NCBI GenBank assembly: GCA_934481515.1
Contig: CAKSPO010000006.1
Coordinates: 134-64,133, forward strand
Direction of reading: 5' to 3'
DNA: 64,000 nucleotides
From: an uncultured Eubacteriales bacterium
GTDB taxonomy: Bacteria > Bacillota > Clostridia > Oscillospirales > CAG-272
Each line of letters begins with the position of its first letter. Within the stretch, counting starts at the first letter, position 1. Position numbers and translations under genes: made by a program. Below the pieces are notes generated by a model. It did no database searches. It had not been told where the DNA came from and worked only from the letters and a program-made list of their open reading frames with translations. Shown here piece by piece: positions 1 through 57,765 of the stretch.

Positions 1-3000
1 AATATCTCCCTCCGTCTCCGGAGCGGTCGGTTCCTGCGAAGTCGTATCCTCCGTCATTCCGTCAAACGGCGTTTCCGCAGGCGTCTCACCCGGAGCTACC
101 ATGGTAATCTCGGAAGGCTCCTCGTTTCCGCGGTTGATCAGTTCCATCGGGATGGCGGCAACCAGCTTCCGGATCAGGCCTTCCTCCACCAACTCGTCGT
201 TGGTCTTATAAGGAACGCGGAAATCTTCCTCGACAAAGTTCTTTTTCTTAGGCAACTGAAGCTGCTCTTCGCAAAGCTTCGTAATCAGCTCCAGCGTATG
301 CTTGAACTTTCTGTCGCCCTTGATCTTCATCAGAACCGGTACGGTTGCGTACTTCTTCTTGGAAGAAACATCGACAAACGCATACTTGCTGTCTGCCAGC
401 TCCTCCGGATTGAGCGCCATGTAGAGATACAGCGTCTTGGTCTTTGCATTGATCTTCGCCACATGGGTTCTGCCCAGATTGAAGGATTCGTAATTCCAGC
501 TGATCCGGTTCTTGATTCCCTTGTAGGAGAGGAGCAGGTTCTTGATCTGGTTGTAATAATCCTGAACATTGCCCTGCGACTGAATCATGCGGGACTGGAA
601 GCTTCTGCGGAATCTGGTAACCAGCTGTACCTCTCCGCGGCGCTCCTGCTCCAGCATATCGTTGTACTTTTCTGCCTCGGCAATGACATCGATGAAGTCC
701 AGCGGCATAGAACCGAATCCGGAGAAGGACTCGTTCTCTTCCTCATTTTCTTCGTTCTCGTCGTCCTCGGCACCCTCTTCGTCGGTTTCGGTCTCCTCGG
801 TAACTTCGGCAACCGTCTCGACAGCAGGCTCTTCAACAGGTTCTTCTGCCGGCTCCTCGACAGACTCTTCTGCGGGTTCTTCTGCAACCGGCAGGAGTCT
901 TGCTGCCAGTTCATCCACCACAGCCGCCTTGACCGCATCTGCCATATCTTCCGTCCAGCTATCCGGAATGTTAGCCTTACCGGCGGCATCCACCGCTTCG
1001 GTAATGGTTGCAATCGTGGTACCTTCCACGGCTTCCGGAACAACGCCGTCTACCGTGACCGCCTCAAATGCTTCCGCAACGGAATCCGCGACCACTGCGC
1101 AAATATCCGGTTCCTCTTCGGCAGCTTCCTCTGCAGGAGCTTCTTCGGTCGTCTCTTCTGCGGGAGCTTCTTCGGTCGTCTCTTCTGCGGGAGCTTCTTC
1201 GGTCGTCTCTTCTGCAGGAGCTTCCTCGGTGACATCCTCTGCCGGAACTTCCTCGGTGACATCCTCTGCGGGAGCTTTTTCGGTCGTCTCTTCTGCGGGA
1301 GCTTCTTCGGTTGTCTCTTCTGCAGGAGCTTCCTCGGTTGTCTCTTCTGCCGGAACTTCTTCGGCAACTTCCTCCGGCAGAACCATCGTTGCCGCCATGG
1401 ACTCTGCCACAATGGCATCCACAACGTCGCGGAAGGATTCCGGCGAAAGCTCTTCTTCGTCTGTAATCAGAGCAACGGCATCGGTTGCATCCGCAGATTC
1501 GTTGAAGTTCTCCGCGATGGTCTCCGCAACAGCAGCGGCAACCAACGTATCGTCTGCTTCGGGTTCTTCCTTTGCGGCTTCTGTGGATTCGGACAGATTT
1601 TCTGCAATCTGATCCGCCAGTTCGTCCGCAGTCGTATCCTCTTCGGCGTTCTCTTCTGCGTTCTCGTCTTCCAGCTGAATCTGAGAAAGCTCGGAAGAGA
1701 GATCCTCCATGGCTTCGCCCACTGCCTGCTCGGTTCCCTCTGCGTCTGCATTTTCTTCTTCGGACGCGGCTTCCACCTCATCGGAAAGATTCTCGGCAAG
1801 CGTATCGATTCCTTCGTTCAGGCAGGCATCAACATCCTCGATCTTGTCTTCCACGGTGACAGGTTCAAATACGGGAAGCTCACCCTCTGTATCAATGACA
1901 AGGACAGGGTTCTTTCCGCTACGCTCCAGACGACGGAGTCTGAGTCCAAGCAGGAACAGGAGAGCAAGAACAGCAACCACCAAAAGAATAATCAGCAGAA
2001 TTCCGGGAATGGTCACCCAGAACGGTGCGTGGTACTTCGGTGCCAAAACCATTGTCAGCTCACCGCGGGCACCAAAGTTATCAATAATATAATGTGTTCC
2101 GTCTTCGCTCAGGCGGATACTGTAGCTGTCCTTCATTGCGCTCATCGTTCCCGTTGCGGCATCGTACACATACAGGTCGGCATCGGTCAGCGGATCGCAA
2201 TTCTTCTCGGAAACAAAAGCAGAGTACACAGGAATGAGCAACTGATACGTTTCGCCCTCTTCGGTTCCCGTCAGCTTGATGGTATACTCTTTATGGACGC
2301 GGAATGCGTGAAGTGCCTTCTTGTTCAGCTCGGTAGGTACGGAAACCTCCAGCTTGACGGAAGGAGCAATTCCGTTCTCACAAAGCAGAATGAACTGGAA
2401 GGAATCATATGCGGAAGAACCTGCGCTCAAATAAGGAGACTTCACAACCATCGTCGCCGTCAGCGTCGAAACTTCATTTCCTTCCGCATCAACAAAGGCA
2501 TAGTTTTCAAAATCGCCGCTGATGCCGGAGGGGAGCTTTGCCTTTACAGTGTAAATTCCGCTTTCGGTAACGCCGTCGCCGACCGTTACCATTCCGTCCG
2601 CCTTGGTGTAGGTGTAAACAATTGCGGAATAAACAGAGGAAGGAATTCCGTTGCCGGAAACCAACAGACGATACGCAATCTTGTTTTCATCCGACGAGGT
2701 CAGCTTGCTTTCCATGATGTAAACCTGATTGCCGAGAGAGACGATGTAATATGCCTTCCGGATCGCAACGCCGCGGCTCAGATCCGATATCCCTGCTGCA
2801 AACGTATAGTTGGCAGCATCGGGGAGCGCTGCAGTCACCACATACGCGGTTTCCTTTTCCCCTCTTTTTACCTGTCCGTAAAGCCCCACGGCAGTTGCAT
2901 CCTCCAGAGAAAGAACACCGGAAGCGCCCGCAATGACAGGACGCAGGTCGTAGGTTCTGCCGGAGGCATCCTTACCGATGACGGAAATTTCGCAAATTTC

Positions 3001-3744
3001 CTTGTCTCCGTAAACGAAAGAATACGCAGGCTTACTCCACGAGACGGAAACGATTTCGATCGGGGTGATCGTTACGTTTACCGGGAGCGCCGGAATCACA
3101 TAGTTGTCAAGGTTGGTACCCGCACCTGCCGTAGCGGTCACGGTAGCGAACTTTTTGAGCGGATTCGATCCGGTTGCACCGGTCATCTCCACATCCAGTT
3201 CGGCACCCGTCACGGTGATGGTCTCACCGGCGGCAACCTTGGAGGTATCCAGCACATAACCGGCAGGAACGCGGACCGTCTCGGTGGTCTTTGCCGGATC
3301 GTACGGAATCGAAACGCTTCCGCCGATCGTCCATGAAAGCCGTGCAGGGACGATTCTTGCCGCCACTTCCATCGGCGCAGGCGCCTGATACTGATCGGCT
3401 TTTTCACCCGTCAGGGTAAACCGAACCGTAATTTTGGTAGCGCTTTGCACATCCTTGCTGTCGAATTCGGCAACAGCAACCAGTGTGACGCCCTCCGCAT
3501 CGGTCTCGGCGGTCACCGCAACAGTGGTTTTACCGTCATACTCTTTGCAGTAGTAGCCGTTTTCCGTCTTTACGACGTTCTCGTCAAACTTCAGGCTCTT
3601 GACGTTTGCAACCGGTCTCGTATTCCCGTTATCTGCCGAGGCAACGATTCCGATGCATCCGACAAGTGCCACAAGGATTGCGAGAACGAACAGCAGTCTG
3701 ACCGGCAGAGTGATGGATCCTGCCCTCATGCGTTGATTTTTCAT
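1..3744 (-). CDS. Large membrane-anchored surface protein whose C-terminus lies beyond the left edge. It has a signal peptide, an Ig/MBG-like ectodomain, one TM helix, an acidic cytoplasmic region with 9-aa repeats and a conserved basic domain.
   Basis: Absent from the ORF track because no stop codon lies in the window. Hand translation of the reverse strand from the ATG at 3744 (MKNQRMRAGSITLPVRLLFVLAILVALVGC...) stays open in one frame to base 1 (1248 codons). TM helix FWVTIPGILLIILLVVAVLALLFLLGL at about 1942-2022. APAEETTEE repeats. The segment at about 175-640 aligns to the 913-aa protein at 53149-55890. Confidence 0.8.
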   Translation of the reverse strand, partial: MKNQRMRAGSITLPVRLLFVLAILVALVGCIGIVASADNGNTRPVANVKSLKFDENVVKTENGYYCKEYDGKTTVAVTAETDAEGVTLVAVAEFDSKDVQSATKITVRFTLTGEKADQYQAPAPMEVAARIVPARLSWTIGGSVSIPYDPAKTTETVRVPAGYVLDTSKVAAGETITVTGAELDVEMTGATGSNPLKKFATVTATAGAGTNLDNYVIPALPVNVTITPIEIVSVSWSKPAYSFVYGDKEICEISVIGKDASGRTYDLRPVIAGASGVLSLEDATAVGLYGQVKRGEKETAYVVTAALPDAANYTFAAGISDLSRGVAIRKAYYIVSLGNQVYIMESKLTSSDENKIAYRLLVSGNGIPSSVYSAIVYTYTKADGMVTVGDGVTESGIYTVKAKLPSGISGDFENYAFVDAEGNEVSTLTATMVVKSPYLSAGSSAYDSFQFILLCENGIAPSVKLEVSVPTELNKKALHAFRVHKEYTIKLTGTEEGETYQLLIPVYSAFVSEKNCDPLTDADLYVYDAATGTMSAMKDSYSIRLSEDGTHYIIDNFGARGELTMVLAPKYHAPFWVTIPGILLIILLVVAVLALLFLLGLRLRRLERSGKNPVLVIDTEGELPVFEPVTVEDKIEDVDACLNEGIDTLAENLSDEVEAASEEENADAEGTEQAVGEAMEDLSSELSQIQLEDENAEENAEEDTTADELADQIAENLSESTEAAKEEPEADDTLVAAAVAETIAENFNESADATDAVALITDEEELSPESFRDVVDAIVAESMAATMVLPEEVAEEVPAEETTEEAPAEETTEEAPAEETTEKAPAEDVTEEVPAEDVTEEAPAEETTEEAPAEETTEEAPAEETTEEAPAEEAAEEEPDICAVVADSVAEAFEAVTVDGVVPEAVEGTTIATITEAVDAAGKANIPDSWTEDMADAVKAAVVDELAARLLPVAEEPAEESVEEPAEEPVEEPAVETVAEVTEETETDEEGAEDDENEENEEENESFSGFGSMPLDFIDVIAEAEKYNDMLEQERRGEVQLVTRFRRSFQSRMIQSQGNVQDYYNQIKNLLLSYKGIKNRISWNYESFNLGRTHVAKINAKTKTLYLYMALNPEELADSKYAFVDVSSKKKYATVPVLMKIKGDRKFKHTLELITKLCEEQLQLPKKKNFVEEDFRVPYKTNDELVEEGLIRKLVAAIPMELINRGNEEPSEITMVAPGETPAETPFDGMTEDTTSQEPTAPETEGDI
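1131..1373. repeat. In-frame 27-nt tandem repeat, about 9 units, encoding an acidic APAEETTEE-type nonapeptide
   Basis: Unit gcgggagcttcttcggtcgtctcttct recurs head to tail with point variants. Reverse-strand translation gives EEAPAEETT / EEVPAEDVT units. Confidence 0.9.
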
Positions 3745-46598: not shown

Positions 46599-48446
46599 GT
46601 GATCAGAGAAGATTTGAGAAATGTGGCAATCATCGCGCACGTCGACCATGGTAAAACCACGTTGGTGGACGGCTTGCTGAAGCAGGGCGGCATCTACCGG
46701 GAGAACCAGGAAACGGTGACCTGCGTGATGGATTCGGGAGACCTGGAGCGCGAGCGCGGAATTACCATTCTGGCGAAAAATACGGCGGTACACTATAAAA
46801 ACATCAAAATCAACATCATTGATACTCCCGGTCACGCAGATTTCGGCGGTGAGGTAGAGCGGATTCTGAAAATGGTGAACGGTGTCATTCTGCTGGTGGA
46901 TGCTGCAGAGGGACCGATGCCGCAGACCCGCTTTGTTCTGCAAAAGGCACTGGAACTGAATCACCGCGTTATTGTCTGTATCAACAAGATCGACAAGCCG
47001 GACGCACGGCTGGGCGAGGTGGAAGATGAAATTCTGGAGCTTCTGATGGATCTGGGCGCGAATGATGAACAGCTCGACAGCCCGATGCTGTACTGCTCCG
47101 GAAGAGCCGGAACCGCCAGCAACGATCCCAACGTTCCGGGAATCGACCTGACGCCGCTGTTTGAGAAAATCGTGGAATATATTCCCGCCCCCGGCGGAGA
47201 CGAGACGGGGGATCTTCAGCTTCTGGTCTCTTCCATCGACTACAATGACTACGTGGGAAGAATTGGCATCGGACGCATCGACCGCGGCTCCATCCGCGTC
47301 GGTCAGGAGGTTGCCGTATGCAACTATCACAACCCCGGTTCGGTCAAGCGTACCAAGATCGTTTCCCTTTACCAGATCGACGGACTTTCCCGCGTTCCCG
47401 TGGAAAGTGCAACCGTGGGAGACATCGTCTGCTTCTCCGGCGCCGGAGATATCACCATCGGAGACACGCTGACCGCAGTCACAAATCCGGAGCCTCTGGA
47501 GTTTGTCAAGGTCTCGGAGCCGACGATGGAAATGACTTTTATGGTCAACAACCGTCCGCTTGCCGGCAAGGAAGGAAAGTTTGTCACCTCCCGTCAACTC
47601 CGTGAACGCCTGTATAAAGAGTTGCTCAAAGACGTTTCCCTGCGGGTCTCCGACGGCGAAACCACGGATGAATTCCGCGTCGCGGGCAGAGGAGAAATGC
47701 ACCTTTCCATTCTTCTGGAAACCATGCGCCGCGAAGGCTTTGAGCTTGCCTGCTCCAATCCCCGCGTGCTTTACAAGGAGATCGACGGGCAGAAGTGCGA
47801 GCCGATGGAGCGCGTCACACTGGACGTTCCCGCAGAATTTGTCGGCGTGGTTGTCGAAAAACTCGGACAGAGAAAAGGGGAGCTCCTTTCGATGAACCCC
47901 ATCGGAAGCCGCACCCGGATTGAATATTCCATTCCCTCCCGGTGCCTTTTCGGCTACCGTTCCGAATTCCTGACCGCAACACACGGCGAAGGAATCATCA
48001 ACACCATTTTTGACGGTTATGCGCCTTACCATGGCGAAATCCCGATGAAGTTTACCGGCTCACTGGTCGCTTCCGAAGCGGGAGAAACCACACGGTACGG
48101 TCTTTACAATACGCAGGAGCGCGGTCTGCTCTTTGTCGGTCCGCAGACGCAGGTCTATGAAGGCATGATCGTCGGAGAAAACCCGAAGAATGACGACATC
48201 GCCGTCAATCCCTGCAAGAAAAAACAGCTGACCGCAATCCGTTCCGCAGGTGCCGACGAAAAACTTCTGCTGGTTCCTCCGAAGATCTTCTCGCTGGAGG
48301 AAGCGATTGAATATATCACGGACGACGACCTGATCGAGGTCACGCCGAAGTCCATCCGTCTGCGCAAAAAGATTCTGAACACCGAGCTCCGCATGAAGGA
48401 CATGATGCGCAAGCGCCGGGAGCTGGAAGCGCAGAAGCGCGGATAA
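46599..48446 (+). CDS. typA: Translational GTPase TypA/BipA
   Basis: GTG start. [35 protein letters not shown]. Full-length BipA architecture. Confidence 0.95.
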
Positions 48447-48637: not shown

Positions 48638-48685
48638 GTCCGGGGAACCGCATCACAGCTGATTGCGGTTCCCCGGACGTTTTTT
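48638..48685. terminator. Bidirectional terminator between typA and the surface-protein operon
   Basis: gtccggggaaccgca...tgcggttccccggac stem. T-run on the right, A/T-rich on the left. Confidence 0.8.
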
Positions 48686-48697
48686 GTTCTGTACGGA

Positions 48698-51600
48698 TTA
48701 TTCTTCAGAATTCCGGTAGAACTCTTCATAATCGGAGGCACCGGATTCCGTTTCCGCATTTTGCGGTGCTTCTTCCGATTCATCGGTTTCGGAATCTCCC
48801 GGCTCGGTCGTTCCCGTTTCTGAAGCAACCGTGTCAGATGCTTCCGGCGAAAGTCCGTAGTTCTCCCACTGGAATTCGTCCTGCGGCAAATATCCTCCAT
48901 GGTCGGAAGCATTCATTTCGGAGTCTTCCGCAAAGTCATATTCACCGGAATCGGATTCTGCAGAATCAGATTCTTCAGAATTGTATTCCGCAGAATCATC
49001 CTCCATGGAATAGTACGGATTTGCGGCAGGTTCAATGAAGTCCTCGTCGCTTTCCCCGTAAACATCCTCTGCAGCTTCGGAAGTTTCCGCTTCGGAAAAT
49101 ACATCATTAAAAGATTCCGTATCAAAATCTTCTGCGTCCGCAATGTCCGCTTCGGAAAGTTCTTCGTCGGAAAGCGCTTCTTCCGATACTTCCTCCGCAG
49201 AATCCGGAGATTCTTCCGGATCTCCGGTGTATGCAGCATCGGTTTCCGCTGAAGTCTCTTCCGTCATATACGGCTCCCCGTAATCGGACGTTTCATCGTA
49301 AACAGCAAACGGATCTTCTGTAGCTTCCGCTTCGGAGATTCCGTTTTCTGCTACGGCGGGTTGTCCCTCCGGCTCAGCCATAACAGGCACCACGTGGTTG
49401 TGTGCTTCGTCATCTCCGGAGCCAGGTCCCGGACGACGGCGGAAGAACACCTCCGAAGTCAGGAGCAGATACATCAGAAAAATCTGCAAAAGCACTGCAA
49501 TTCCACCGAGAATGCAGACAATCAGCATTGCATTCTCCGGCAGGAAACGAACCGTCAGAAGCACAGGAAGTGCCCACGCGGACAGGCGCACCTGCCCGTT
49601 CTTTCTTTCGCGCCGTGCAGAGAGCAGTGCCGCAATGGCAACCAGCTGGCAAAGCAGAATGACAGAAAGTACAATGATCACGGGAGTCAGAAGAACGGTC
49701 GGATCCGCAAAAATCACAAAATCCGAAATATGGTCGGCAACGAAATAGAGCTCATCGCCATCCCGGCGGCATTCCAGAAGTTCCACAACGCCGGTCGTCC
49801 GGTCATAGTAAGCAACCGTCAGTCCGGTATGATGCCGCAGTTCCTCCGGAATCTGCAACCGGATCTCAAAGGAATTCTTTTCATTGTTGGTCGTCGTCAG
49901 TAAAGAGAAGCTGTAGACGCCAACCACCTCAAGCCCGCGGAGCAGCTCCTCCGCTTCCGCGAGAGTGATTCCGGCGGCACTGACCGTAACGCGTCCGGAG
50001 GTACGGATCGCATCACTGATTGCGGCGGCAAGCGTATCAAAATCCTCCTGTCGGATCAGAGTCAGATAACTGCCCTGCGCAAGACCGTATTTGGCAAGCA
50101 GGCGGAGAAGTCCGTCTCTGCTGAACAGATACGTGACCGGAATCTGCTCCATCGCGCTCTTTGCGTCGGCGGAGACCGCATCCACTTCACTCTCGGTCGC
50201 TGCCGAAATGATGGCAGCTTCCGCCGCGGCAACGATGGTCTTCATCTGATTCAGGCTTTCCTCGCTGAACAGCCCGCTTGCGGTATAACTGCGCAAAAGC
50301 TCCCGCAGCTCGGCAATCTTTTTGTCCTGATAACGTGCAAACCCGATCTTCGCCCTGGCGTCCTCGACAATACGCTCCACAATGTGGTAGAAATCGGGAT
50401 CCAGCGGTGTTTTGGCGGCTTCCTCGTTGATTTTCCGGATGGCTTCGTCAATCACACCTCTGGCAAGCTCACCGTCACTGCCCTCCCGCAGATTTTCCAG
50501 CTCCTCAATCTTGGAAGGAAGATAAGACTGAATCAGCGTGGAATACCGCAATTCCAGCTCTTTTCCGTGCGGCTCGTTTTCCGTTGCCTTCAGACGGATA
50601 TAAATACAGTATTCGGTACCGGGATAAAGTCCCTCAAACGTACCGGAATCCTGCCACACCAGCGCCGTACCGGAGGCAGAGCTTGCGCGGCAGGCAAACT
50701 CAAACAGGCTTGCGCGTTCCTCCAGCATCTGCACGATCAGCTTGGTATCGTAAAGGTTCTTGATGACATAAATGTCGCCCTTTCCGGTGGCAACATCATA
50801 CCATGTAGGCATATCCGCTCTGCCGACAATCGCAAAATCCACCGGATCGCTGTCGGAGGTCGCCGTACAATCGCCGTAAGCAATGATCTGTACCGTATTT
50901 CCGAAGAAGGAATCCGGCACCGTCACGGCGCTCTCTCCTTTTCCGTTGACCGTGAAGTTTCCGGAAGAAGAAACGGTCACCCGCAGAGAAACGGAGCCGA
51001 AACGGATCAGATACGAGCCGGCGGGCAGAACAAAGGTTTCATCGAAATAGTTGATGCGGATCGTCGGCACCGTAATGGTCGGAAGCACGGTGGCGCGAAG
51101 CTGAATTTCCCCGACCCCGACCGTCAGCTCCGGAGACGTATATACAGAGGAGTGCTCGGAGAGCACCGTACCGTTCCACTTCACGGTCTTGTAACCGGAG
51201 GGGGATCGGATGATAACCGTAAACCGCGTCTCATACGGAAGCAGAATCGGAGAGCCGGTGTAAGGATACTCCGTCCCGTCCGCCGTCCGGATGATAACCG
51301 TCGCGTCATCCGTTCCCTCTATCGTAACGGAAACCGGATAGGACTTGCGGATCCACGCCGCATACAGCGTAATGCTTCCGTCGCCGTCCGCCCCGGACAG
51401 ATCCCAGGCGGAGCAGACGCTTTCACCGACTGCGTTGATATAAAGAGTTCCCTTTCCGTCCGGCTCACTGTAATACCCGGCAAAATCAAAGCCCGTCCGG
51501 GTGGGGCAGACGAATGCAGGGGAAGTGGGAAGAACAAAGGGCTGATCGTAGATCACATCCGCAATGCTTCCGGTTCCGGGCGTAGTAGCGTCCTGCCCGT

Positions 51601-53131
51601 CCAGAATCACGTGGTAATGCTTGGCTTCCCAAACGGCTTCCAGACGGATATTTTCCGCGTACGTTCCGGCAGAAAGCTTCACCGCACCGTTCTCGGAGGT
51701 CAGCTCCGCCGTTCCTCCCGAGGTGTGCAGAATCCATTTGATGAAGGTATATCCGGCGCGAACCGGATCCGGTACGGTAATTCCGTTCTCGTCATCAAAC
51801 ACGAAGTTGCGCGGAAGAGCGGCATTGATCGTATCCAGAAGCGTATTCTGCTCATCGTTCTTTCCGTTCCAGACGTAACCGATCTCATACGTGTTGGCTT
51901 CCCAGCACGCCGTGAGAACAATCTCCTTATCAGCGGAAATATATTTGGTCAGATTGTCGTTGTCAAGACCGAGACAAAGACCGGGCTGCAGATTCTCATA
52001 CTGCACCGTAGTTGCATCCTCCGACTTGACCGTCATGATCCACCCGCGGAAGGTATATCCGACCCGCGTGGGATCCGGAATGTCCGTCCGTACATTGAAG
52101 GTGTACTTCACCGGAGCGCCCTCCGGCATCGTCAGTGCACTGCCGTCCGGATTCCGGTAGGTCAGCACATAGTCAATCGCCTTGTAGAGCCGGTACACCA
52201 CGTTCGGAGCAGGCTGAAGACCGGTCGGCACCGTGATCTGATGGGTCGGGTAACTGTAGCCGTCCGTCCCGTCGGTCAGCAGCTCATATCCCACATAAGA
52301 CTTGTATCCGCCTTCGGGGTCGTCACTCATGTGCTCCAGCGCCGTAATAATCTTTGCCATGTCCTCTTCCCATTCGGTGGTACCAAGCAGCTTTCCGTGG
52401 AAAAGCGGCGGCGCATCCGGGTCATACCGGTAGTCATACCGGCGCACCGGCTGCTTGACCGGCGTAAAGACGGCATAGGCGTAAACGGTACCGGTTCCGT
52501 CCATATCGTCATTGAACAGATATTTCGGAATATAATACTGATCCGCTTCGTTCTTGTTGATGATTTTCTGATAGGACTTTCCGGTGCTGTCCAACAGTTC
52601 CCAGTGATCAAACAGATATCCCGTCCGCACGACCGCGGGAAGCACATAGTCCTCATTATAGGTATATTTCTGGTTGTTCAGTTCGTTTTCGTTGGCGCTC
52701 AACGGGTGGTACGGACGTGCGCTCAGCCCTTCGCCGACAAACCGCAGATCAAAGGAACGGTAACCGCACCGGATGATTCCGCTGACCGACTCCGAAAACG
52801 TCTCGCGGCTGAAACGGTCATTCGTCATCAGACTGCTTCCCGGCGCATTCTTGTTTTCAATGTCCGTCAGTTCAAATCCGTCCTTCGGCTGAACGGTGAC
52901 AATCACACTGGAGCCGGTCGGAATGGAGTACTTCTTTCCGGAAACCATATCGATTTTTTCCGTCCCGTAATAAAGCGTTACGGAACACTGCTCCGGATCA
53001 AATTCCATCATGAGATCCGGATCCGTTCCTTCGGCGGAAACCGAAACCAGCAGCGCACAGGTCAGCAGTGCCAGAAGTACCGAAAGGAGCAACGCCAAAC
53101 GCATCCGGAACATTTTTTTACATGGATTCAT
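48698..53131 (-). CDS. 1477-aa surface protein with Listeria-Bacteroides (InlB B / Flg_new-type) repeats, a C-terminal TM block and a 247-aa acidic tail
   Basis: Signal peptide MRLALLLSVLLALLTCALLVSVSA. Recurring G[YF]xFxxW motifs (TGYLFDHWEL, VGYTFRGWIM, AGYTFIKWIL, TGFDFAGYYSEPDG). Hydrophobic block at about 49442-49717. D/E/S/Y-rich tail at 48701-49441. No LPXTG seen. Confidence 0.8.
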   Translation of the reverse strand: MNPCKKMFRMRLALLLSVLLALLTCALLVSVSAEGTDPDLMMEFDPEQCSVTLYYGTEKIDMVSGKKYSIPTGSSVIVTVQPKDGFELTDIENKNAPGSSLMTNDRFSRETFSESVSGIIRCGYRSFDLRFVGEGLSARPYHPLSANENELNNQKYTYNEDYVLPAVVRTGYLFDHWELLDSTGKSYQKIINKNEADQYYIPKYLFNDDMDGTGTVYAYAVFTPVKQPVRRYDYRYDPDAPPLFHGKLLGTTEWEEDMAKIITALEHMSDDPEGGYKSYVGYELLTDGTDGYSYPTHQITVPTGLQPAPNVVYRLYKAIDYVLTYRNPDGSALTMPEGAPVKYTFNVRTDIPDPTRVGYTFRGWIMTVKSEDATTVQYENLQPGLCLGLDNDNLTKYISADKEIVLTACWEANTYEIGYVWNGKNDEQNTLLDTINAALPRNFVFDDENGITVPDPVRAGYTFIKWILHTSGGTAELTSENGAVKLSAGTYAENIRLEAVWEAKHYHVILDGQDATTPGTGSIADVIYDQPFVLPTSPAFVCPTRTGFDFAGYYSEPDGKGTLYINAVGESVCSAWDLSGADGDGSITLYAAWIRKSYPVSVTIEGTDDATVIIRTADGTEYPYTGSPILLPYETRFTVIIRSPSGYKTVKWNGTVLSEHSSVYTSPELTVGVGEIQLRATVLPTITVPTIRINYFDETFVLPAGSYLIRFGSVSLRVTVSSSGNFTVNGKGESAVTVPDSFFGNTVQIIAYGDCTATSDSDPVDFAIVGRADMPTWYDVATGKGDIYVIKNLYDTKLIVQMLEERASLFEFACRASSASGTALVWQDSGTFEGLYPGTEYCIYIRLKATENEPHGKELELRYSTLIQSYLPSKIEELENLREGSDGELARGVIDEAIRKINEEAAKTPLDPDFYHIVERIVEDARAKIGFARYQDKKIAELRELLRSYTASGLFSEESLNQMKTIVAAAEAAIISAATESEVDAVSADAKSAMEQIPVTYLFSRDGLLRLLAKYGLAQGSYLTLIRQEDFDTLAAAISDAIRTSGRVTVSAAGITLAEAEELLRGLEVVGVYSFSLLTTTNNEKNSFEIRLQIPEELRHHTGLTVAYYDRTTGVVELLECRRDGDELYFVADHISDFVIFADPTVLLTPVIIVLSVILLCQLVAIAALLSARRERKNGQVRLSAWALPVLLTVRFLPENAMLIVCILGGIAVLLQIFLMYLLLTSEVFFRRRPGPGSGDDEAHNHVVPVMAEPEGQPAVAENGISEAEATEDPFAVYDETSDYGEPYMTEETSAETDAAYTGDPEESPDSAEEVSEEALSDEELSEADIADAEDFDTESFNDVFSEAETSEAAEDVYGESDEDFIEPAANPYYSMEDDSAEYNSEESDSAESDSGEYDFAEDSEMNASDHGGYLPQDEFQWENYGLSPEASDTVASETGTTEPGDSETDESEEAPQNAETESGASDYEEFYRNSEE

Positions 53132-53148
53132 ATTTCGTTGCCCTCCTC

Positions 53149-55890
53149 TCAGCGAATCAGAATGGAATCCCCGTCCGCTTCCCCGATGGCGATCAGCGCA
53201 TCTCTGGTGAAGTGGTTGGCTTCCACAGTGTACTTTCCTTTGACGGAACCGCTTGCATAAACCTTCAGAACCGTTGCGCTTTCCGGTGCCAGTCCGACTT
53301 CCTTCACGGCATCCAGATCCACCACGGAACCGTTTTCAAAATAATGATCGAACAGGCAAACATCAATCAGAGCCACATTCGGATTGGCATTGCTCATCGG
53401 CTCCGGTCGCGAGGGAGCCGGGGGCGGAGTCTCCGCAGGCTCGTCCTCTTCGGTGGGTTCGTCCTCTTCGGCAACCTCGTCCTCTTCGGCAGGCTCGTCC
53501 TCTTCGACAACTTCGTCCTCTTCGGTGGGTTCGTCCTCTTCGACAGGCTCGTCCTCTTCGGTGGGCTCGTCCTCTTCGGCAACCTCGTCCTCTTCGGCAA
53601 CTTCGTCCTCTTCGGCAACCTCGTCCTCTTCGACAGGCTCGTCCTCTTCGACAACTTCGTCCTCTTCGACAGGCTCGTTCTCTTCGGCAGGCTCGTCCTC
53701 TTCGGCAACCTCGTCCTCTTCGACAGGCTCGTCCTCTTCGGCAACCTCGTCCTCTTCGGTGGGTTCGTCCTCTTCGACAGGCTCGTCCTCTTCGGCAGGC
53801 TCGTCCTCTTCGACAGCTTCTTCCGCGGGTTCCGGGACTTCCGGGATCTCCGGAATTTCCGGAGCGGATTCTTCAACCGTTTCTGTCGGTTGTATAGTAG
53901 CAGAAGGTTCTGCAAGCGTTGCGGTCTCCTCCGCTTCTCCCTCGATCAACTTTGTTGCTGAAGTCTTTCCGGCAGAATCCGGAACGTGATAGAAAGTTTC
54001 TTTATAGTGTTGCTCCACAATGTGCACCGTCTCTCTCGAAACGGTCGTCGTAGAAGCAGGAACGGGAGCGGCCGGTTGCGTCACCTCTTCCGGATTTTCC
54101 TCCGGCTCCGGTTCGGGCATTTCCTCCGGCGCAGGCTCCGGTTCCGGTACTTGTTCCGGTTCCGGCTCTGTCGCTTTTTCCGCCTCGTCGTCCAGTTCCC
54201 AGGTAAAGTTTGCGTTTGCCGGAATCACGCTGGCATCCTCGTCCGGAACCGCAGGAACATGATCGGGATCCAACTCAAAGGAAACCGCCGGTTTTTCCTC
54301 CCGCAGATACTCACGGATCAGCCCGCGTGCAATCAGACTATCGGTTGCTTCAAACGGATACTGCTCCTCGTAATTGACCTCTTCCAGATCAATCGGAGAC
54401 AATCCCTGCTCCTCACAGGTTCGCTGAATCAGCTCCAACGCCAGCGTCAGCTTACGGGGAGAGGTAACTTTATACAGAAACGGCGTGTCCGCATACTTTT
54501 TCTTTCCGCCGACATCTCTGCCGTGATAAACCGTGCCCTCCAGTCCCGCGGGATCCAGTGCAAGATACACCTCCAGAGTCTTTGCGCGGGCATTGAATTT
54601 TGCAATCTGCGTATGCTCATTGGTGAAGGTCTCACAGCCCCAGCTGATGCGGTTGCGGGTTCCCTCGTACGCCATGACGGCATTTTTCAGCGCACTGTAA
54701 TACCGCTTGACCGCCGGGCGGGACTGAATCAGCTTTGCTTCAAAGCTCTTGCGGTAACGTGCTACGATATAGTAGCCGGTCTCCTCATCAAATCCGACAA
54801 TCCGTTCGTTGGCATCAAACAGGTCGCTGTCGAAGCCATCCTCCGCGTCCGGCTCTTCTCCGTCGTTGTCCTCCGCGGAAACGTCACCGTCCGCAGAAAG
54901 GTCGGTATCGTCATCGTCGTCCTCCGCGTCATCCTCCGGAGATTCCGGAAACTCTGCGTCCTCCCGCAGAGAATGCTTTTCTCCTGCTCCCGCCGCCACG
55001 GTCGCATCCGAAGTGTTCCGCGGGCTTTCCACCGCCATTTCACGTTCCAAACGGTGCTGTTTCTCCACCTTCAGAAGCTCCGTGATTGCACGCAAAAGCT
55101 CCTCGGTCAAAGGCGTGTCCTTTGCAACCGCGGCAGGCGTCGGGATATTGTTGGTAGTCGTTTCGTGAACGACCTCCTTGTGTGTTTCCGTAAAGTGTTT
55201 TTCAATAATCCGGACAGAACCGGGCGCACCGGCATACGGCGGCACCTGCTGTGTCCCCGCCGCCGTCATGGGAACCTGTTCCGGAACCGTTGCGGAAACC
55301 GGAACCGAAGGCTCCGCCGCATCCGCAGGAACCGTCTCCTCCGCGGAAAAAATCTCCTCCTGCTCCCTCTCCGGAAGATTCTCCTCCATCGGAGGCTCCT
55401 CGATGTCCGCCTCGGCATCCGTCGGGGCATCCGCTTCGTCGTCGGCTACGGCATCCTCTGCCGCCCCCTCTGCTTCCGTTACGGATTCCGCCGCCTCTGT
55501 CCCGGCATCGGTATCGACATCCGGTGTGTCGGCTTCCTTACGGCGCTCCTTTCCGGCAAGGAACAGGTACCCCTTGCAACGGAACACAACCAAAAGAACC
55601 GCAAGCACGATAGCCCCGACCGCCGCCGCTCCCGCCAGTGTATAAAACACGGCATACGTCGTCCTGGGAACAATTCCGAGCAACAGGATCCCCAGCGCAT
55701 AATGCCGCTCGGAATCCTCCTCTTTGCCGTGCGCGCGTCTGACCTTTCCGATCAGGATGCAGATTCCGGCAATCTCTGCCCCAAGGATGCATGCCAGCAG
55801 GACAATGGCAATCAGAAAGAACCGCTCCGCGCTGAGATTCAGCGTAGCGGAAAGCGCTGCGGTAAGTACCGGGAAAAAAGATGAAATCAA
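53149..55890 (-). CDS. 913-aa membrane-anchored polyacidic protein with a conserved basic domain and a uL15-like C-terminal domain
   Basis: TTG start 8 nt after GGAGG. Three N-terminal TM helices. D/E-rich linkers. Conserved domain at aa 362-530. About 22 hexapeptide EEDE[PV]x repeats. The last 76 aa (NVALIDV...LKVYASGSVKGKYTVEANHFTRDALIAIGEADGDSILIR) align to the ribosomal protein L15 C-terminal domain. Confidence 0.8.
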   Translation of the reverse strand: MISSFFPVLTAALSATLNLSAERFFLIAIVLLACILGAEIAGICILIGKVRRAHGKEEDSERHYALGILLLGIVPRTTYAVFYTLAGAAAVGAIVLAVLLVVFRCKGYLFLAGKERRKEADTPDVDTDAGTEAAESVTEAEGAAEDAVADDEADAPTDAEADIEEPPMEENLPEREQEEIFSAEETVPADAAEPSVPVSATVPEQVPMTAAGTQQVPPYAGAPGSVRIIEKHFTETHKEVVHETTTNNIPTPAAVAKDTPLTEELLRAITELLKVEKQHRLEREMAVESPRNTSDATVAAGAGEKHSLREDAEFPESPEDDAEDDDDDTDLSADGDVSAEDNDGEEPDAEDGFDSDLFDANERIVGFDEETGYYIVARYRKSFEAKLIQSRPAVKRYYSALKNAVMAYEGTRNRISWGCETFTNEHTQIAKFNARAKTLEVYLALDPAGLEGTVYHGRDVGGKKKYADTPFLYKVTSPRKLTLALELIQRTCEEQGLSPIDLEEVNYEEQYPFEATDSLIARGLIREYLREEKPAVSFELDPDHVPAVPDEDASVIPANANFTWELDDEAEKATEPEPEQVPEPEPAPEEMPEPEPEENPEEVTQPAAPVPASTTTVSRETVHIVEQHYKETFYHVPDSAGKTSATKLIEGEAEETATLAEPSATIQPTETVEESAPEIPEIPEVPEPAEEAVEEDEPAEEDEPVEEDEPTEEDEVAEEDEPVEEDEVAEEDEPAEENEPVEEDEVVEEDEPVEEDEVAEEDEVAEEDEVAEEDEPTEEDEPVEEDEPTEEDEVVEEDEPAEEDEVAEEDEPTEEDEPAETPPPAPSRPEPMSNANPNVALIDVCLFDHYFENGSVVDLDAVKEVGLAPESATVLKVYASGSVKGKYTVEANHFTRDALIAIGEADGDSILIR
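53431..53826. repeat. In-frame 18-nt tandem repeat, about 22 units, encoding EEDE[PV][AVT]
   Basis: ctcgtcctcttcggcaac / ...gacagg / ...ggtggg units recur head to tail. All six frames give low-complexity shadow ORFs in the track. Confidence 0.95.
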
Positions 55891-55974
55891 AATTCCGTCC
55901 TCCGTTTCCGATTCTGTCTGTAAAAATAGAACTTATTTTACAGCATTTTACTGATTCGATGATTCTACAAGTAT

Positions 55975-56003
55975 ATTGTAGCACAAAACGATTTTAGAAT
56001 CAA
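55975..56003 (-). promoter_or_regulatory. Extended -10 promoter of the surface-protein operon
   Basis: The reverse strand reads TTGATT, 17 nt, TGcTACAAT, within an AT-rich spacer. Confidence 0.6.
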
Positions 56004-56050
56004 TAGTAAAAAAAATTTTATTCTGTTTTTTCCACGGTTTTCCGTCGCAT

Positions 56051-56087
56051 AAAAAGCCCGGAAACAACAAAAGGAACAACGTTTCCG
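56051..56087 (-). terminator. Intrinsic terminator of the upstream lipid-kinase operon
   Basis: The reverse strand reads cggaaac...gtttccg, followed by GGCTTTTTA. Confidence 0.6.
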
Positions 56088-56135
56088 CATCCATCGGCAA
56101 AAACGTGTTCCTCCTGACAAAACCTTTAAAAAATC

Positions 56136-56810
56136 TCACAGCTCCTGCAAAAGGCGCTCCAGCCGGTTCCGGACCTCCCCGCACCGGAGAAAAACCGTCT
56201 GCAGTCGGCACTGCTTTCCTTCTCCGGACAGATCCGCCGCCGCTCCGACCTCGCGTCGCAGATACGCCGACAGACTTCCCGCATCCTCCCGCGCCGCGGC
56301 AGACACCCTTGCAAATGCCGCCGAAAGCGCCGCTTCCCGACACTCCGGCGATGCCGCTTTTCCGTGAGACGCTTCCGTCTCCGGGCATTCATTCTCCGCC
56401 GTTCCGCCCGCCGGTTCCCCGCCGCTTCCGGATCGGATTCTGACCCCAGCGACCCGAAGCTCCGTCAGTTGTTTTTCCACGGCATGCAAAGCAAAGAAAA
56501 CCGGAAGGCTCTCCTCCTGCAACTTCTCCCAGGACAAAAGCATCCGGCAGACGACCGGAAGAGCATCCTCCTTCGGCTCCCCGCGGAAAATGCCGGACGG
56601 TGCCGGGAGCGCGTGCTCCGTCCGCCGCAACAGCTCCATCTCCCGCTCCAGTTTCTGCCGCAGAAGCACCTTTGCCTGCGCAAGCTGCTTTTCTGCCTGT
56701 GAGAGAAGCACCTCCCGGCTCACCTCCGGAAGCGGTGCGTCCCGATTGGTTCCGGTTCCAAGATACCCGAAATCCTCCGGAAAAAGCGGTTTCCCGCCCC
56801 CCTCAGACAT
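56136..56810 (-). CDS. Hypothetical protein (about 224 aa), coiled-coil-rich
   Basis: Start MSEGGGKPLF overlaps the upstream stop by 8 nt. EKQLAQAKVLLRQKLEREMELLRR segment. No family recognised. Confidence 0.45.
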   Translation of the reverse strand: MSEGGGKPLFPEDFGYLGTGTNRDAPLPEVSREVLLSQAEKQLAQAKVLLRQKLEREMELLRRTEHALPAPSGIFRGEPKEDALPVVCRMLLSWEKLQEESLPVFFALHAVEKQLTELRVAGVRIRSGSGGEPAGGTAENECPETEASHGKAASPECREAALSAAFARVSAAAREDAGSLSAYLRREVGAAADLSGEGKQCRLQTVFLRCGEVRNRLERLLQEL

Positions 56811-57765
56811 CCGCGTGCTCCCGCCGGTCCGGATGATGCTCCTCTCCGGGCAACGGCTGTGCCGTGTCCGGGACGGCAAACCGGATGGCGTGCGGTACCA
56901 CCTCTACCGTAAAGCGGTTCTGCGCCACCAGCTCACCGTCAAAGGAATACAGAAACCCGTCGGGCGCTTCAATCTCCACCCGTTTGGCGCGACGGTAATG
57001 AACGATATCCGCAAAAGCAGGATCCTCCAGATGTGTTCCGCTGGTATAACCGTTAATCAGACGGAGAAACCGGATTCTCGATACCGGATCGACCAGACAG
57101 ATTTCCAGCCAGCCGTCATTGTCCAGCGAACGCGGTGCACAGCGGAAGGAACCGCCCACATACTGCCCGTTCGCAATCGTACAGAGCAGCAGTTTTCCCT
57201 TCGGGTTGATGACTTCCCCGTCCGCCTTTACCGTGCATTGGTTCTTCATTCCCTTGAAAAGCCCGACCACAACGCCGGTGGTGTATGCGTTCTTTCCGCC
57301 GATCAGCTTCTTCCGCCGGACATCGATCATGGTCTTTGCCACGCAGGAATCAAACCCGAAATGCGTCGCGTTGATGGCATACTTGTTTCCCACGCGCATC
57401 AGATCAATATATTCTTCCTTGGCGGAAAGCAGCGCAGGAAGATTCCAGAAAACCTTTTTCCCGCCGTAATACTTGACAAAATCGTTTCCGGAACCGCAGG
57501 GATAACAGCTGACGGAGACCTGCGGAAACCCGACGGCACCGTTGACCACCTCATTCAGCGTTCCGTCTCCGCCGCAGGCGTAAAAGCGGACGGGATCGGT
57601 ATATTTCATGCAGTAATTCCGGATGTAAACCGTCGCATCCCCCGGTGCCTGCGTCTCGTACAGCTCATAATCCGCATCGGCAGCTTCCGTGGAAAGACAA
57701 CGACGGATGGTCTCGTAGGAATTGTTTTTCCCGGCGGCAGGATTGATCATAAACACGTGTTTCAT
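56803..57765 (-). CDS. Diacylglycerol/lipid kinase family protein (YegS/DagK-like)
   Basis: MINPAAGK..., ACGGDGTLNEVVNG, GSGNDF. Confidence 0.85.
   Translation of the reverse strand: MKHVFMINPAAGKNNSYETIRRCLSTEAADADYELYETQAPGDATVYIRNYCMKYTDPVRFYACGGDGTLNEVVNGAVGFPQVSVSCYPCGSGNDFVKYYGGKKVFWNLPALLSAKEEYIDLMRVGNKYAINATHFGFDSCVAKTMIDVRRKKLIGGKNAYTTGVVVGLFKGMKNQCTVKADGEVINPKGKLLLCTIANGQYVGGSFRCAPRSLDNDGWLEICLVDPVSRIRFLRLINGYTSGTHLEDPAFADIVHYRRAKRVEIEAPDGFLYSFDGELVAQNRFTVEVVPHAIRFAVPDTAQPLPGEEHHPDRREHADV

Follow-up and report, generated by a model that had tools for sequence, protein, structure and literature searches.

A conserved gene pair of an uncultured Eubacteriales bacterium that may encode a transmembrane surface protein split into two halves

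Genes A and B are adjacent on the minus strand of a 64,000-nucleotide (nt) stretch of DNA from an uncultured Eubacteriales bacterium of the Oscillospirales (GenBank assembly GCA_934481515.1, contig CAKSPO010000006.1, forward-strand positions 134 to 64,133). This stretch is called the window, and coordinates are window positions unless another locus is named. Gene A (53149-55890) encodes 913 amino acids (aa) from a TTG start that agrees with the gene calls on public contigs, and gene B (48698-53131) encodes 1477 aa. The list of open reading frames (ORFs) confirmed the positions, the strand and the 17-nt spacing given in the original prediction, which was made from the sequence of the window alone and read the pair as an operon. 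The comparative sequence evidence gives good support to a functional link between A and B, since their synteny is conserved, their parts occur fused in single chains and similar pairs have formed independently. We further propose a split transmembrane surface protein of which A and B each make up one half. The full chain of this proposal, from the split protein through assembly in the membrane to docking on DNA or on ribosomal RNA (rRNA)/ribosomes, with acidic stretches serving as spacers or competitors, is plausible, if slightly short of probable.

Every B orthologue that could be placed on a contig had an A-type gene directly upstream, at gaps of 3 to 17 nt, in six lineages. The gap is 17 nt in the window lineage (which is that of loci L002, L084 and L085; B 100% identical) and in L086 (78% identity to window B), 14 nt in L087 (40%), 15 nt in L089 (35%), 12 nt in L001 (32%) and 3 nt in L003 (30%). 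Orthologues of B are 30-78% identical and those of A 40-74%, and within the syntenic pairs the identity of A goes down to about 47%. The outer context of the pair comprises an upstream YegS-type lipid kinase gene with an unknown gene in four of the six lineages and upstream DUF5685 and DnaJ genes on the opposite strand in the other two. Homologues of the two genes are therefore syntenic in all six lineages.

Fusion and re-pairing point in the same direction. Several single chains (P0023, P0028, P0149 and others) combine a Flg_new ectodomain, a similar transmembrane (TM) block, two or three copies of the basic domain found in A and an end resembling ribosomal protein uL15. P0023 matches Flg_new with an E value of 1e-33 and carries a TM block, three domain copies and a Ribosomal_L27A match (E = 1.5e-12). 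The Flg_new-type ectodomain of P0149 matches B itself (E = 7e-13), and the fused proteins P0070, P0096 and P0072 have a membrane-proximal region similar to that of B. In two other loci, the order of the genes is reversed. L092 encodes a giant Flg_new/coiled-coil protein with a C-terminal TM helix and about 10 cytoplasmic residues, followed 13 nt later by a 386-aa partner with a TM helix, the domain and a uL15-like end. L046 encodes a 2423-aa protein (TM helix, acidic tail) and then a 354-aa protein (TM helix, domain). The six-lineage synteny, the fused chains and the reversed pairs support the earlier suggestion that the parts work together across the membrane, and they make a physical interaction between the two proteins a reasonable expectation. 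The split (A plus B) and fused forms represent a natural experiment on that interaction.

The architecture of B is that of a surface protein. A Sec-type signal peptide is followed by about 1,100 extracytoplasmic residues, which match Flg_new (PF09479) in three stretches at 56.1 bits (cut-off, 27) and the Listeria-Bacteroides repeat TIGR02543 at 24.7 bits (cut-off, 20.95). B is thus secreted and carries InlB-B-type repeats, as predicted, and the Pfam search of B found no domain besides Flg_new. A motif scan of A, B and the product of a third gene, C, found no [LIVS]PX[TSA]G motif, and Pfam searches of the three proteins found no SLH, cohesin or dockerin domain; these results agree with the initial observation that LPXTG, SLH, cohesin/dockerin and enzyme domains are lacking. 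Hydropathy and an alignment of the six lineages placed a TM block of three segments at aa 1137-1232 (49436-49723). It is followed by an acidic tail (aa 1233-1477; 48701-49435) with 82 D/E and 2 K/R residues and a net charge of -80, which is probably cytoplasmic. The block and the acidic tail had both been predicted, the tail at a length of 247 aa; its actual length is 245 aa. One motif in the tail, DFIEPAANPYYS (aa 1366-1377; approximately 49001-49036), is kept in four of the six lineages, while the rest of the tail is unconserved.

Protein A begins with a TM block of its own (aa 1-113; 55552-55890; located by the same means) in which TM1 and a basic loop are followed by a short hydrophobic segment; a tight turn then leads into a long TM helix with basic residues after it. 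By hydropathy, the layout is alike in A and B. The alignment showed an invariant intramembrane Glu (Glu39) in TM1 of A and an invariant Gln in both TM1 and TM3 of B, and these residues may make a polar helix-helix contact. Given the roughly 10 cytoplasmic residues of the L092 surface protein, contact between partners, if any, would lie in the membrane rather than involve an acidic tail. Two stronger claims were considered and rejected. Homology of the A and B blocks could not be demonstrated (hhalign probability, 9%), so that the likeness is one of layout only, and there is no general rule of TM Glu/Gln pairing, as D/E occurs in 22% of adaptor-type TM helices.

The approximately 800 residues that follow the TM block of A are predicted to be cytoplasmic from its topology and the positive-inside rule and by extension from gene C, whose product has a single-pass topology. 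Gene C (1-3744, minus strand) is cut by the window edge. Its product has, in order, a signal peptide, a YDG ectodomain, one TM helix, the sequence RLRRLERSGK, 417 acidic residues and an A-type domain (aa 1025-1202; nt 139-672) that is 42% identical to A over 155 aa (BLASTP E = 7e-38) and that would lie in the cytoplasm. Translation, Pfam and BLASTP thereby confirmed that an ectodomain, a TM helix, an acidic stretch and the basic domain of A are joined in one chain. About 20 orthologous Oscillospiraceae loci have the same order of parts. In L001 (15128-16195) and L003 (9076-10230), B is followed by a third gene, whose small product combines an acidic linker with a single domain copy and resembles the cytoplasmic tail of the window's gene C product.

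The predicted cytoplasmic part of A contains D/E-rich linkers, a conserved basic domain and a uL15-like end, all of which had been recognized earlier and were confirmed by charge computation and Pfam. The linkers have net charges of -27, -26, -21 and -97, and the whole protein has a net charge of about -180. The basic domain occupies aa 362-541 (54268-54807); its core (aa 376-505) has a net charge of +6 and an isoelectric point (pI) of 9.4. An 18-nt tandem repeat (53435-53816), identified with Tandem Repeats Finder and a motif count, encodes EEDEP[AVT]/EEDEV[AV] hexapeptides; aa 651-826 together carry a net charge of approximately -97. The acidic hexapeptide array was predicted correctly, at 22 repeats; 21 copies were counted. 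Array length differs among otherwise identical strains, the protein P0130 (L002) having 811 aa versus 913 aa and 17 fewer repeats. Two related short motifs, VRIIEKHFTETHKEVVHE (55192-55245; aa 216-233) and VSRETVHIVEQH (54007-54042; aa 617-628), are also kept among A orthologues.

Neither Pfam nor NCBIfam has a model for the basic domain. A word-indexed search with the domain of A gave only 4 fragments, and the family became visible in an exhaustive profile search, in which 3,470 cluster representatives at 50% identity carried the domain, 1,530 of them with E values of <1e-30. Many representatives have 2 to 7 tandem copies. A pattern scan of GTDB species genomes yielded 354 confirmed domain loci; nearly all of the 80 loci listed belong to uncultured Clostridia (Oscillospiraceae, Christensenellales and "Eubacteriales"). 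Protein A matches the hidden Markov model (HMM) of the domain with an E value of 1e-90 and also has the TM block and the uL15-like end, and it therefore fits the full definition of the family. Searches of the domain profile against PDB sequences, of PHROGs and, by tblastn, of PLSDB plasmids returned no match.

Structure prediction suggested a known fold class for the domain. The AlphaFold2 model, built from a 26-sequence alignment, has predicted local distance difference test (pLDDT) values of 96-99 over the core. Its best Foldseek matches in the PDB are YjbR of E. coli (2fki), YdhG/DUF1801 (9t2w and 2oc6) and the DNA-binding domain of phage T4 MotA (1kaf), which suggest a double-wing-like fold. 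Foldseek probabilities are 0.93-1.0 for YjbR/YdhG and 0.47 for MotA, with E values of 0.007-0.5 and target-normalized template-modeling scores (TM-scores) of 0.50-0.56. In a viral structure library, the domain matched a DUF5655 protein and a MotA entry. At the level of sequence profiles, neither A nor C matched Pfam DUF5655, DUF1801 or YjbR up to E values of 0.1-1; DUF5655 was matched by 1 of 26 diverse domain copies (E = 0.054), and P0005 is the only family member to reach the Pfam DUF5655 threshold (62.8 bits).

Nucleic-acid binding is the most economical reading of these matches, as it would also account for the charge of the domain and for its other partners. Net charge has a median of +8 over 353 domain copies and is positive in 91% of them. 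Soluble relatives (P0006, P0010, P0011, P0014, P0024 and P0056) consist of DUF2357, the N-terminal domain of McrC, followed by 3 to 7 domain copies; Pfam finds no DUF2357 in A, B or C. In PADLOC, the domain has a match in the C-terminal part of model PDC-S18 (E = 3.5e-25 for P0006). Genome context provides further leads to DNA- or RNA-related roles, which fall short of proof. Small members of the family (355-370 aa, an acidic linker and one domain) are encoded directly after dnaB (DnaB_2)-dnaI and before a DUF2383 gene in 13 Oscillospiraceae loci (L015:5315-9091 and 12 similar loci). Soluble members from Christensenellales (560-1187 aa, acidic repeats and a C-terminal domain) are encoded between spoIVA and rnj (RNase J) in L055:3605-10454 and about 25 other Christensenellales loci.

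The PDC-S18 match and the DUF2357 fusions could also be taken to mean that the pair acts in anti-phage defense, with B as a surface sensor or decoy and A as the nucleic-acid-recognizing part. However, the match of A to PDC-S18 (E = 1.2e-3) is limited to the shared domain: it covers model positions 205-329 of 365 only, leaving the N-terminal part unmatched. Pfam and NCBIfam searches found no nuclease, ATPase or other effector domain in A or B, and there were no PHROG matches. Rather than a defense island, the neighborhood consists of housekeeping genes (lipid kinase and BipA), and the locus has stayed stable from lineage to lineage. Because of the missing effector and the housekeeping neighbors, a defense role is very improbable.

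The C-terminal domain of A (aa 831-913; 53152-53400), delimited with Pfam PF00828 and a PDB profile, is by sequence comparison a true homologue of residues 72-144 of uL15. Ribosomal_L27A (PF00828) matches aa 851-907 at 29.8 bits (cut-off, 21.5; E = 8e-7), and a profile of 16 family C termini matches PDB uL15 with an E value of 1.9e-15, over residues 72-144 only. Among representatives with at least 70 residues past the last domain copy, the uL15-like domain was found in 43 of 52 that have a TM segment versus 0 of 30 that do not. Relatives of A appear in NCBI and JGI under the names "uL15 family ribosomal protein" or "ribosomal protein L15" (e.g., P0175, P0177, P0183 and P0199). These names and the above-cut-off match to PF00828 are what would speak for A being a uL15-family ribosomal protein, either a component of the ribosome or a substitute for one. 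As a claim of membership this was rejected: A scores 19.7 bits against the TIGR01071 equivalog (cut-off, 77.95), with profile positions 72-141 only, and lacks the N-terminal half of uL15. A protein of 913 aa that is anchored in the membrane, with its strongly negative net charge, is a barely credible ribosomal protein. The uL15 naming is a systematic misannotation, since just the C-terminal half of uL15 is present and it ends membrane proteins.

Taken together, the parts suggest how the pair might work. In the proposed model, which describes a type widespread in uncultured gut Clostridia, A and B would be cotranscribed from their own promoter. B would be the outward half, with its Sec signal, adhesin-like Flg_new ectodomain, three-segment TM block and polyacidic cytoplasmic tail. 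A would be the inward half, its one basic double-wing-type domain being set apart from the uL15 C-domain paralogue by spacers that are polyacidic and disordered. Within the membrane, the two would come together, most likely by way of their TM blocks with the invariant Glu of A and Gln of B. The cytoplasmic module would dock this complex on a polyanion of the nucleic-acid type, be it chromosomal DNA or rRNA/ribosomes. The acidic stretches would serve as spacers or else compete, within the same molecule, for the basic domain. In this way, a structure on the cell surface would be linked physically to the nucleoid or to the machinery of translation. A bolder version, in which a previously undescribed envelope-spanning class ties giant adhesin-like surface structures to ribosomes by way of the uL15 paralogue, to the chromosome by way of tandem double-wing domains, or to both, A-B being the two-chain form, is possible, if rather doubtful.

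The opposite charges in the two proteins allow a different ligand for the basic domain. It might bind the polyacidic tail of B, or the tail motif FIEPAAxPxYS, in an electrostatic clamp that acts as an intracellular scaffold or retention device. The domain is basic, the tails are extremely acidic, the short motif of the B tail is conserved amid unconserved sequence, and in the fused proteins acidic linker and domain share one chain, all of which would fit. On the other hand, the acidic linker is slight or absent in many members of the family (P0023, for example, has 14% D/E), the L092 surface protein has an adaptor partner despite its short cytoplasmic end, and the soluble McrC-type fusions suggest that the ligand is not the tail of a partner. 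We consider a clamp unlikely. Acidic regions beside a basic domain would equally fit autoinhibition, and a large repeat ectodomain coupled across the membrane to a DNA-binding-type fold could belong to a signal relay of the Notch or anti-sigma style, in which a ligand or force acting on the ectodomain of B releases or unmasks the module of A onto the chromosome. The conserved neighborhood, however, has no protease, kinase, sigma or anti-sigma gene, the proteins have no helix-turn-helix or other classical regulator domain, and up to 7 tandem domain copies together with a uL15 paralogue would be unusual for a transcription factor. A relay of this kind is decidedly unlikely.

Several observations weigh against docking of a split A-B protein on nucleic acid. 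For every member of the family, a nucleic-acid ligand is a prediction. The structural matches are weak at the Foldseek E values (0.007-0.5) and TM-scores (0.5-0.56) obtained, and the fold class also holds YdhG, which is frataxin-like and binds iron. RNA binding by the uL15-like copy of A itself is doubtful because that copy is acidic (net charge, -6; pI 4.6), unlike the lysine-rich, basic family consensus. As for membrane assembly, hhalign showed no significant similarity between the profiles of the two TM blocks (probability, 9%), and a TM Glu, at 22% of adaptor-type members, is no general feature of the family. Finally, A-like genes also occur without a B-like neighbor (L041, L043, L091 and L093).

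The signals around the pair are those of a transcription unit. A consensus scan identified a minus-strand promoter at 55975-56003, with a -35 element of TTGATT, a 17-nt spacer and a -10 element of TACAAT that is extended to TGcTACAAT. The ribosome-binding site (RBS) of gene A, GGAGG (55899-55903), was read from the sequence 8 nt before the TTG. Four lineages have kept both promoter hexamers, the TG, the RBS and the TTG start without change, even though the flanking intergenic DNA has diverged; the extended -10 promoter proposed for the pair is thus upheld. In the 17-nt A-B spacer (53132-53148), GAGGAGG (53142-53148) comes immediately past the TGA stop of A. The RBS of B therefore abuts that stop, whereas an overlap with it had been proposed. 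Past B lies a GC-rich hairpin (48638-48678) with an adjacent A-run, which together (48638-48685) form a candidate bidirectional terminator. RNA folding gave the hairpin a free energy of -35.7 kcal/mol and a z score of -7.3, with 0 of 200 shuffles as stable; it is flanked by the A-run upstream and by a moderately U-rich tail. The predicted strong terminator is consequently supported as to the strong hairpin, and its bidirectionality is that of a candidate. A simple terminator scan did not pick the hairpin because its loop is longer than 8 nt. The hairpin stands between gene B and the convergent bipA/typA gene (46599-48446). Judged from sequence, the unit is plausibly self-contained, given the conserved promoter, the RBS-coupled start and the strong hairpin past B.

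Other features of the region were also recorded. A weak terminator-like hairpin (56079-56106) lies between the promoter of A and an upstream gene pair at 56136-57765, made up of a gene for a YegS/DAGK-type lipid kinase and, overlapping it, a gene for 224 aa without a known domain. A 50-aa gene annotated on public contigs (55948-56100, minus strand) covers the promoter and is probably a false call. Long plus-strand ORFs opposite B (50384-53260) and A (53986-55884) were dismissed, as they seem to be by-products of biased composition.

The pieces of this system (Flg_new, the double-wing fold and the uL15 C-domain) are known. For their combination, in which an adhesin-like surface protein is joined across the membrane, in one chain or two, to tandem double-wing domains and a ribosomal-protein paralogue, no counterpart was found in Pfam, NCBIfam, PADLOC, PHROGs and the literature that could be searched; literature searches on PDC-S18, DUF5655 and Ribosomal_L27A plus transmembrane found nothing relevant. 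Profile searches assigned neither protein to a characterized adhesin/anchor system, and public names are "hypothetical" or the uL15 misnomer, in line with the statement in the original prediction that no described system has this layout. To our knowledge, coupling of a surface protein to the nucleoid or ribosomes has not been described for bacteria. If the proposal is right, thousands of proteins in gut Clostridia that are abundant although uncultured would form an unrecognized trans-envelope link between an adhesin-like surface and a nucleic-acid-binding module, a bacterial counterpart of surface-to-interior linker complexes. It would establish a new domain family, with about 3,470 clusters at 50% identity, put right a systematic error of annotation and raise the question of whether surface architecture is physically coupled to the nucleoid or ribosomes.

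Comparison with known systems sets out what is shared and what differs. B resembles the adhesin-like proteins of gut microbes with Flg_new/InlB B-repeats (TIGR02543) in having the same repeats behind a Sec signal. Unlike them, it is seated on a three-segment TM block rather than an LPXTG, SLH or choline-binding anchor, and it has a 245-aa polyacidic, presumably cytoplasmic tail and is genetically coupled to a predicted cytoplasmic adaptor. The domain of A finds its best structural matches among proteins of the CyaY-like "double-wing" fold, which comprises MmcQ/YjbR (PF04237), YdhG/DUF1801 (PF08818), DUF5655 (PF18899) and the C-terminal DNA-binding domain of T4 MotA; like YjbR, the A-type domain occurs fused to restriction-type proteins, and it is basic. 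It differs from YjbR, DUF1801 and DUF5655 in its size (about 155-180 aa, with additional strands at both termini), in its tandem arrays of up to 7 copies and in being usually membrane tethered. The last approximately 80 residues of A share their ancestry with uL15 (PF00828, TIGR01071); in contrast to uL15, A has no N-terminal rRNA-penetrating half, and its copy is acidic and ends a membrane protein. In HMGB1, an acidic tail autoinhibits basic DNA-binding domains, and the long polyacidic disordered segments that flank the basic domain of A may be compared with it as an analogy of mechanism only, there being no homology and the acidic segments not being universal in the family of A. Membrane-tethered DNA-binding proteins are known in ToxR/CadC and RodZ, and DnaB of Bacillus subtilis attaches the origin to the membrane; dnaB-dnaI are also the genes that immediately precede those of the small family members. 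In concept, A-B would resemble ToxR/CadC and RodZ, in which a DNA-binding-type module at the inner face of the membrane is joined to an extracytoplasmic domain. It would differ from them in its opposite topology (an N-terminal ectodomain and a C-terminal cytoplasmic module), in its fold and in its division into two chains, one with a giant adhesin-like ectodomain and the other with a ribosomal-protein paralogue.

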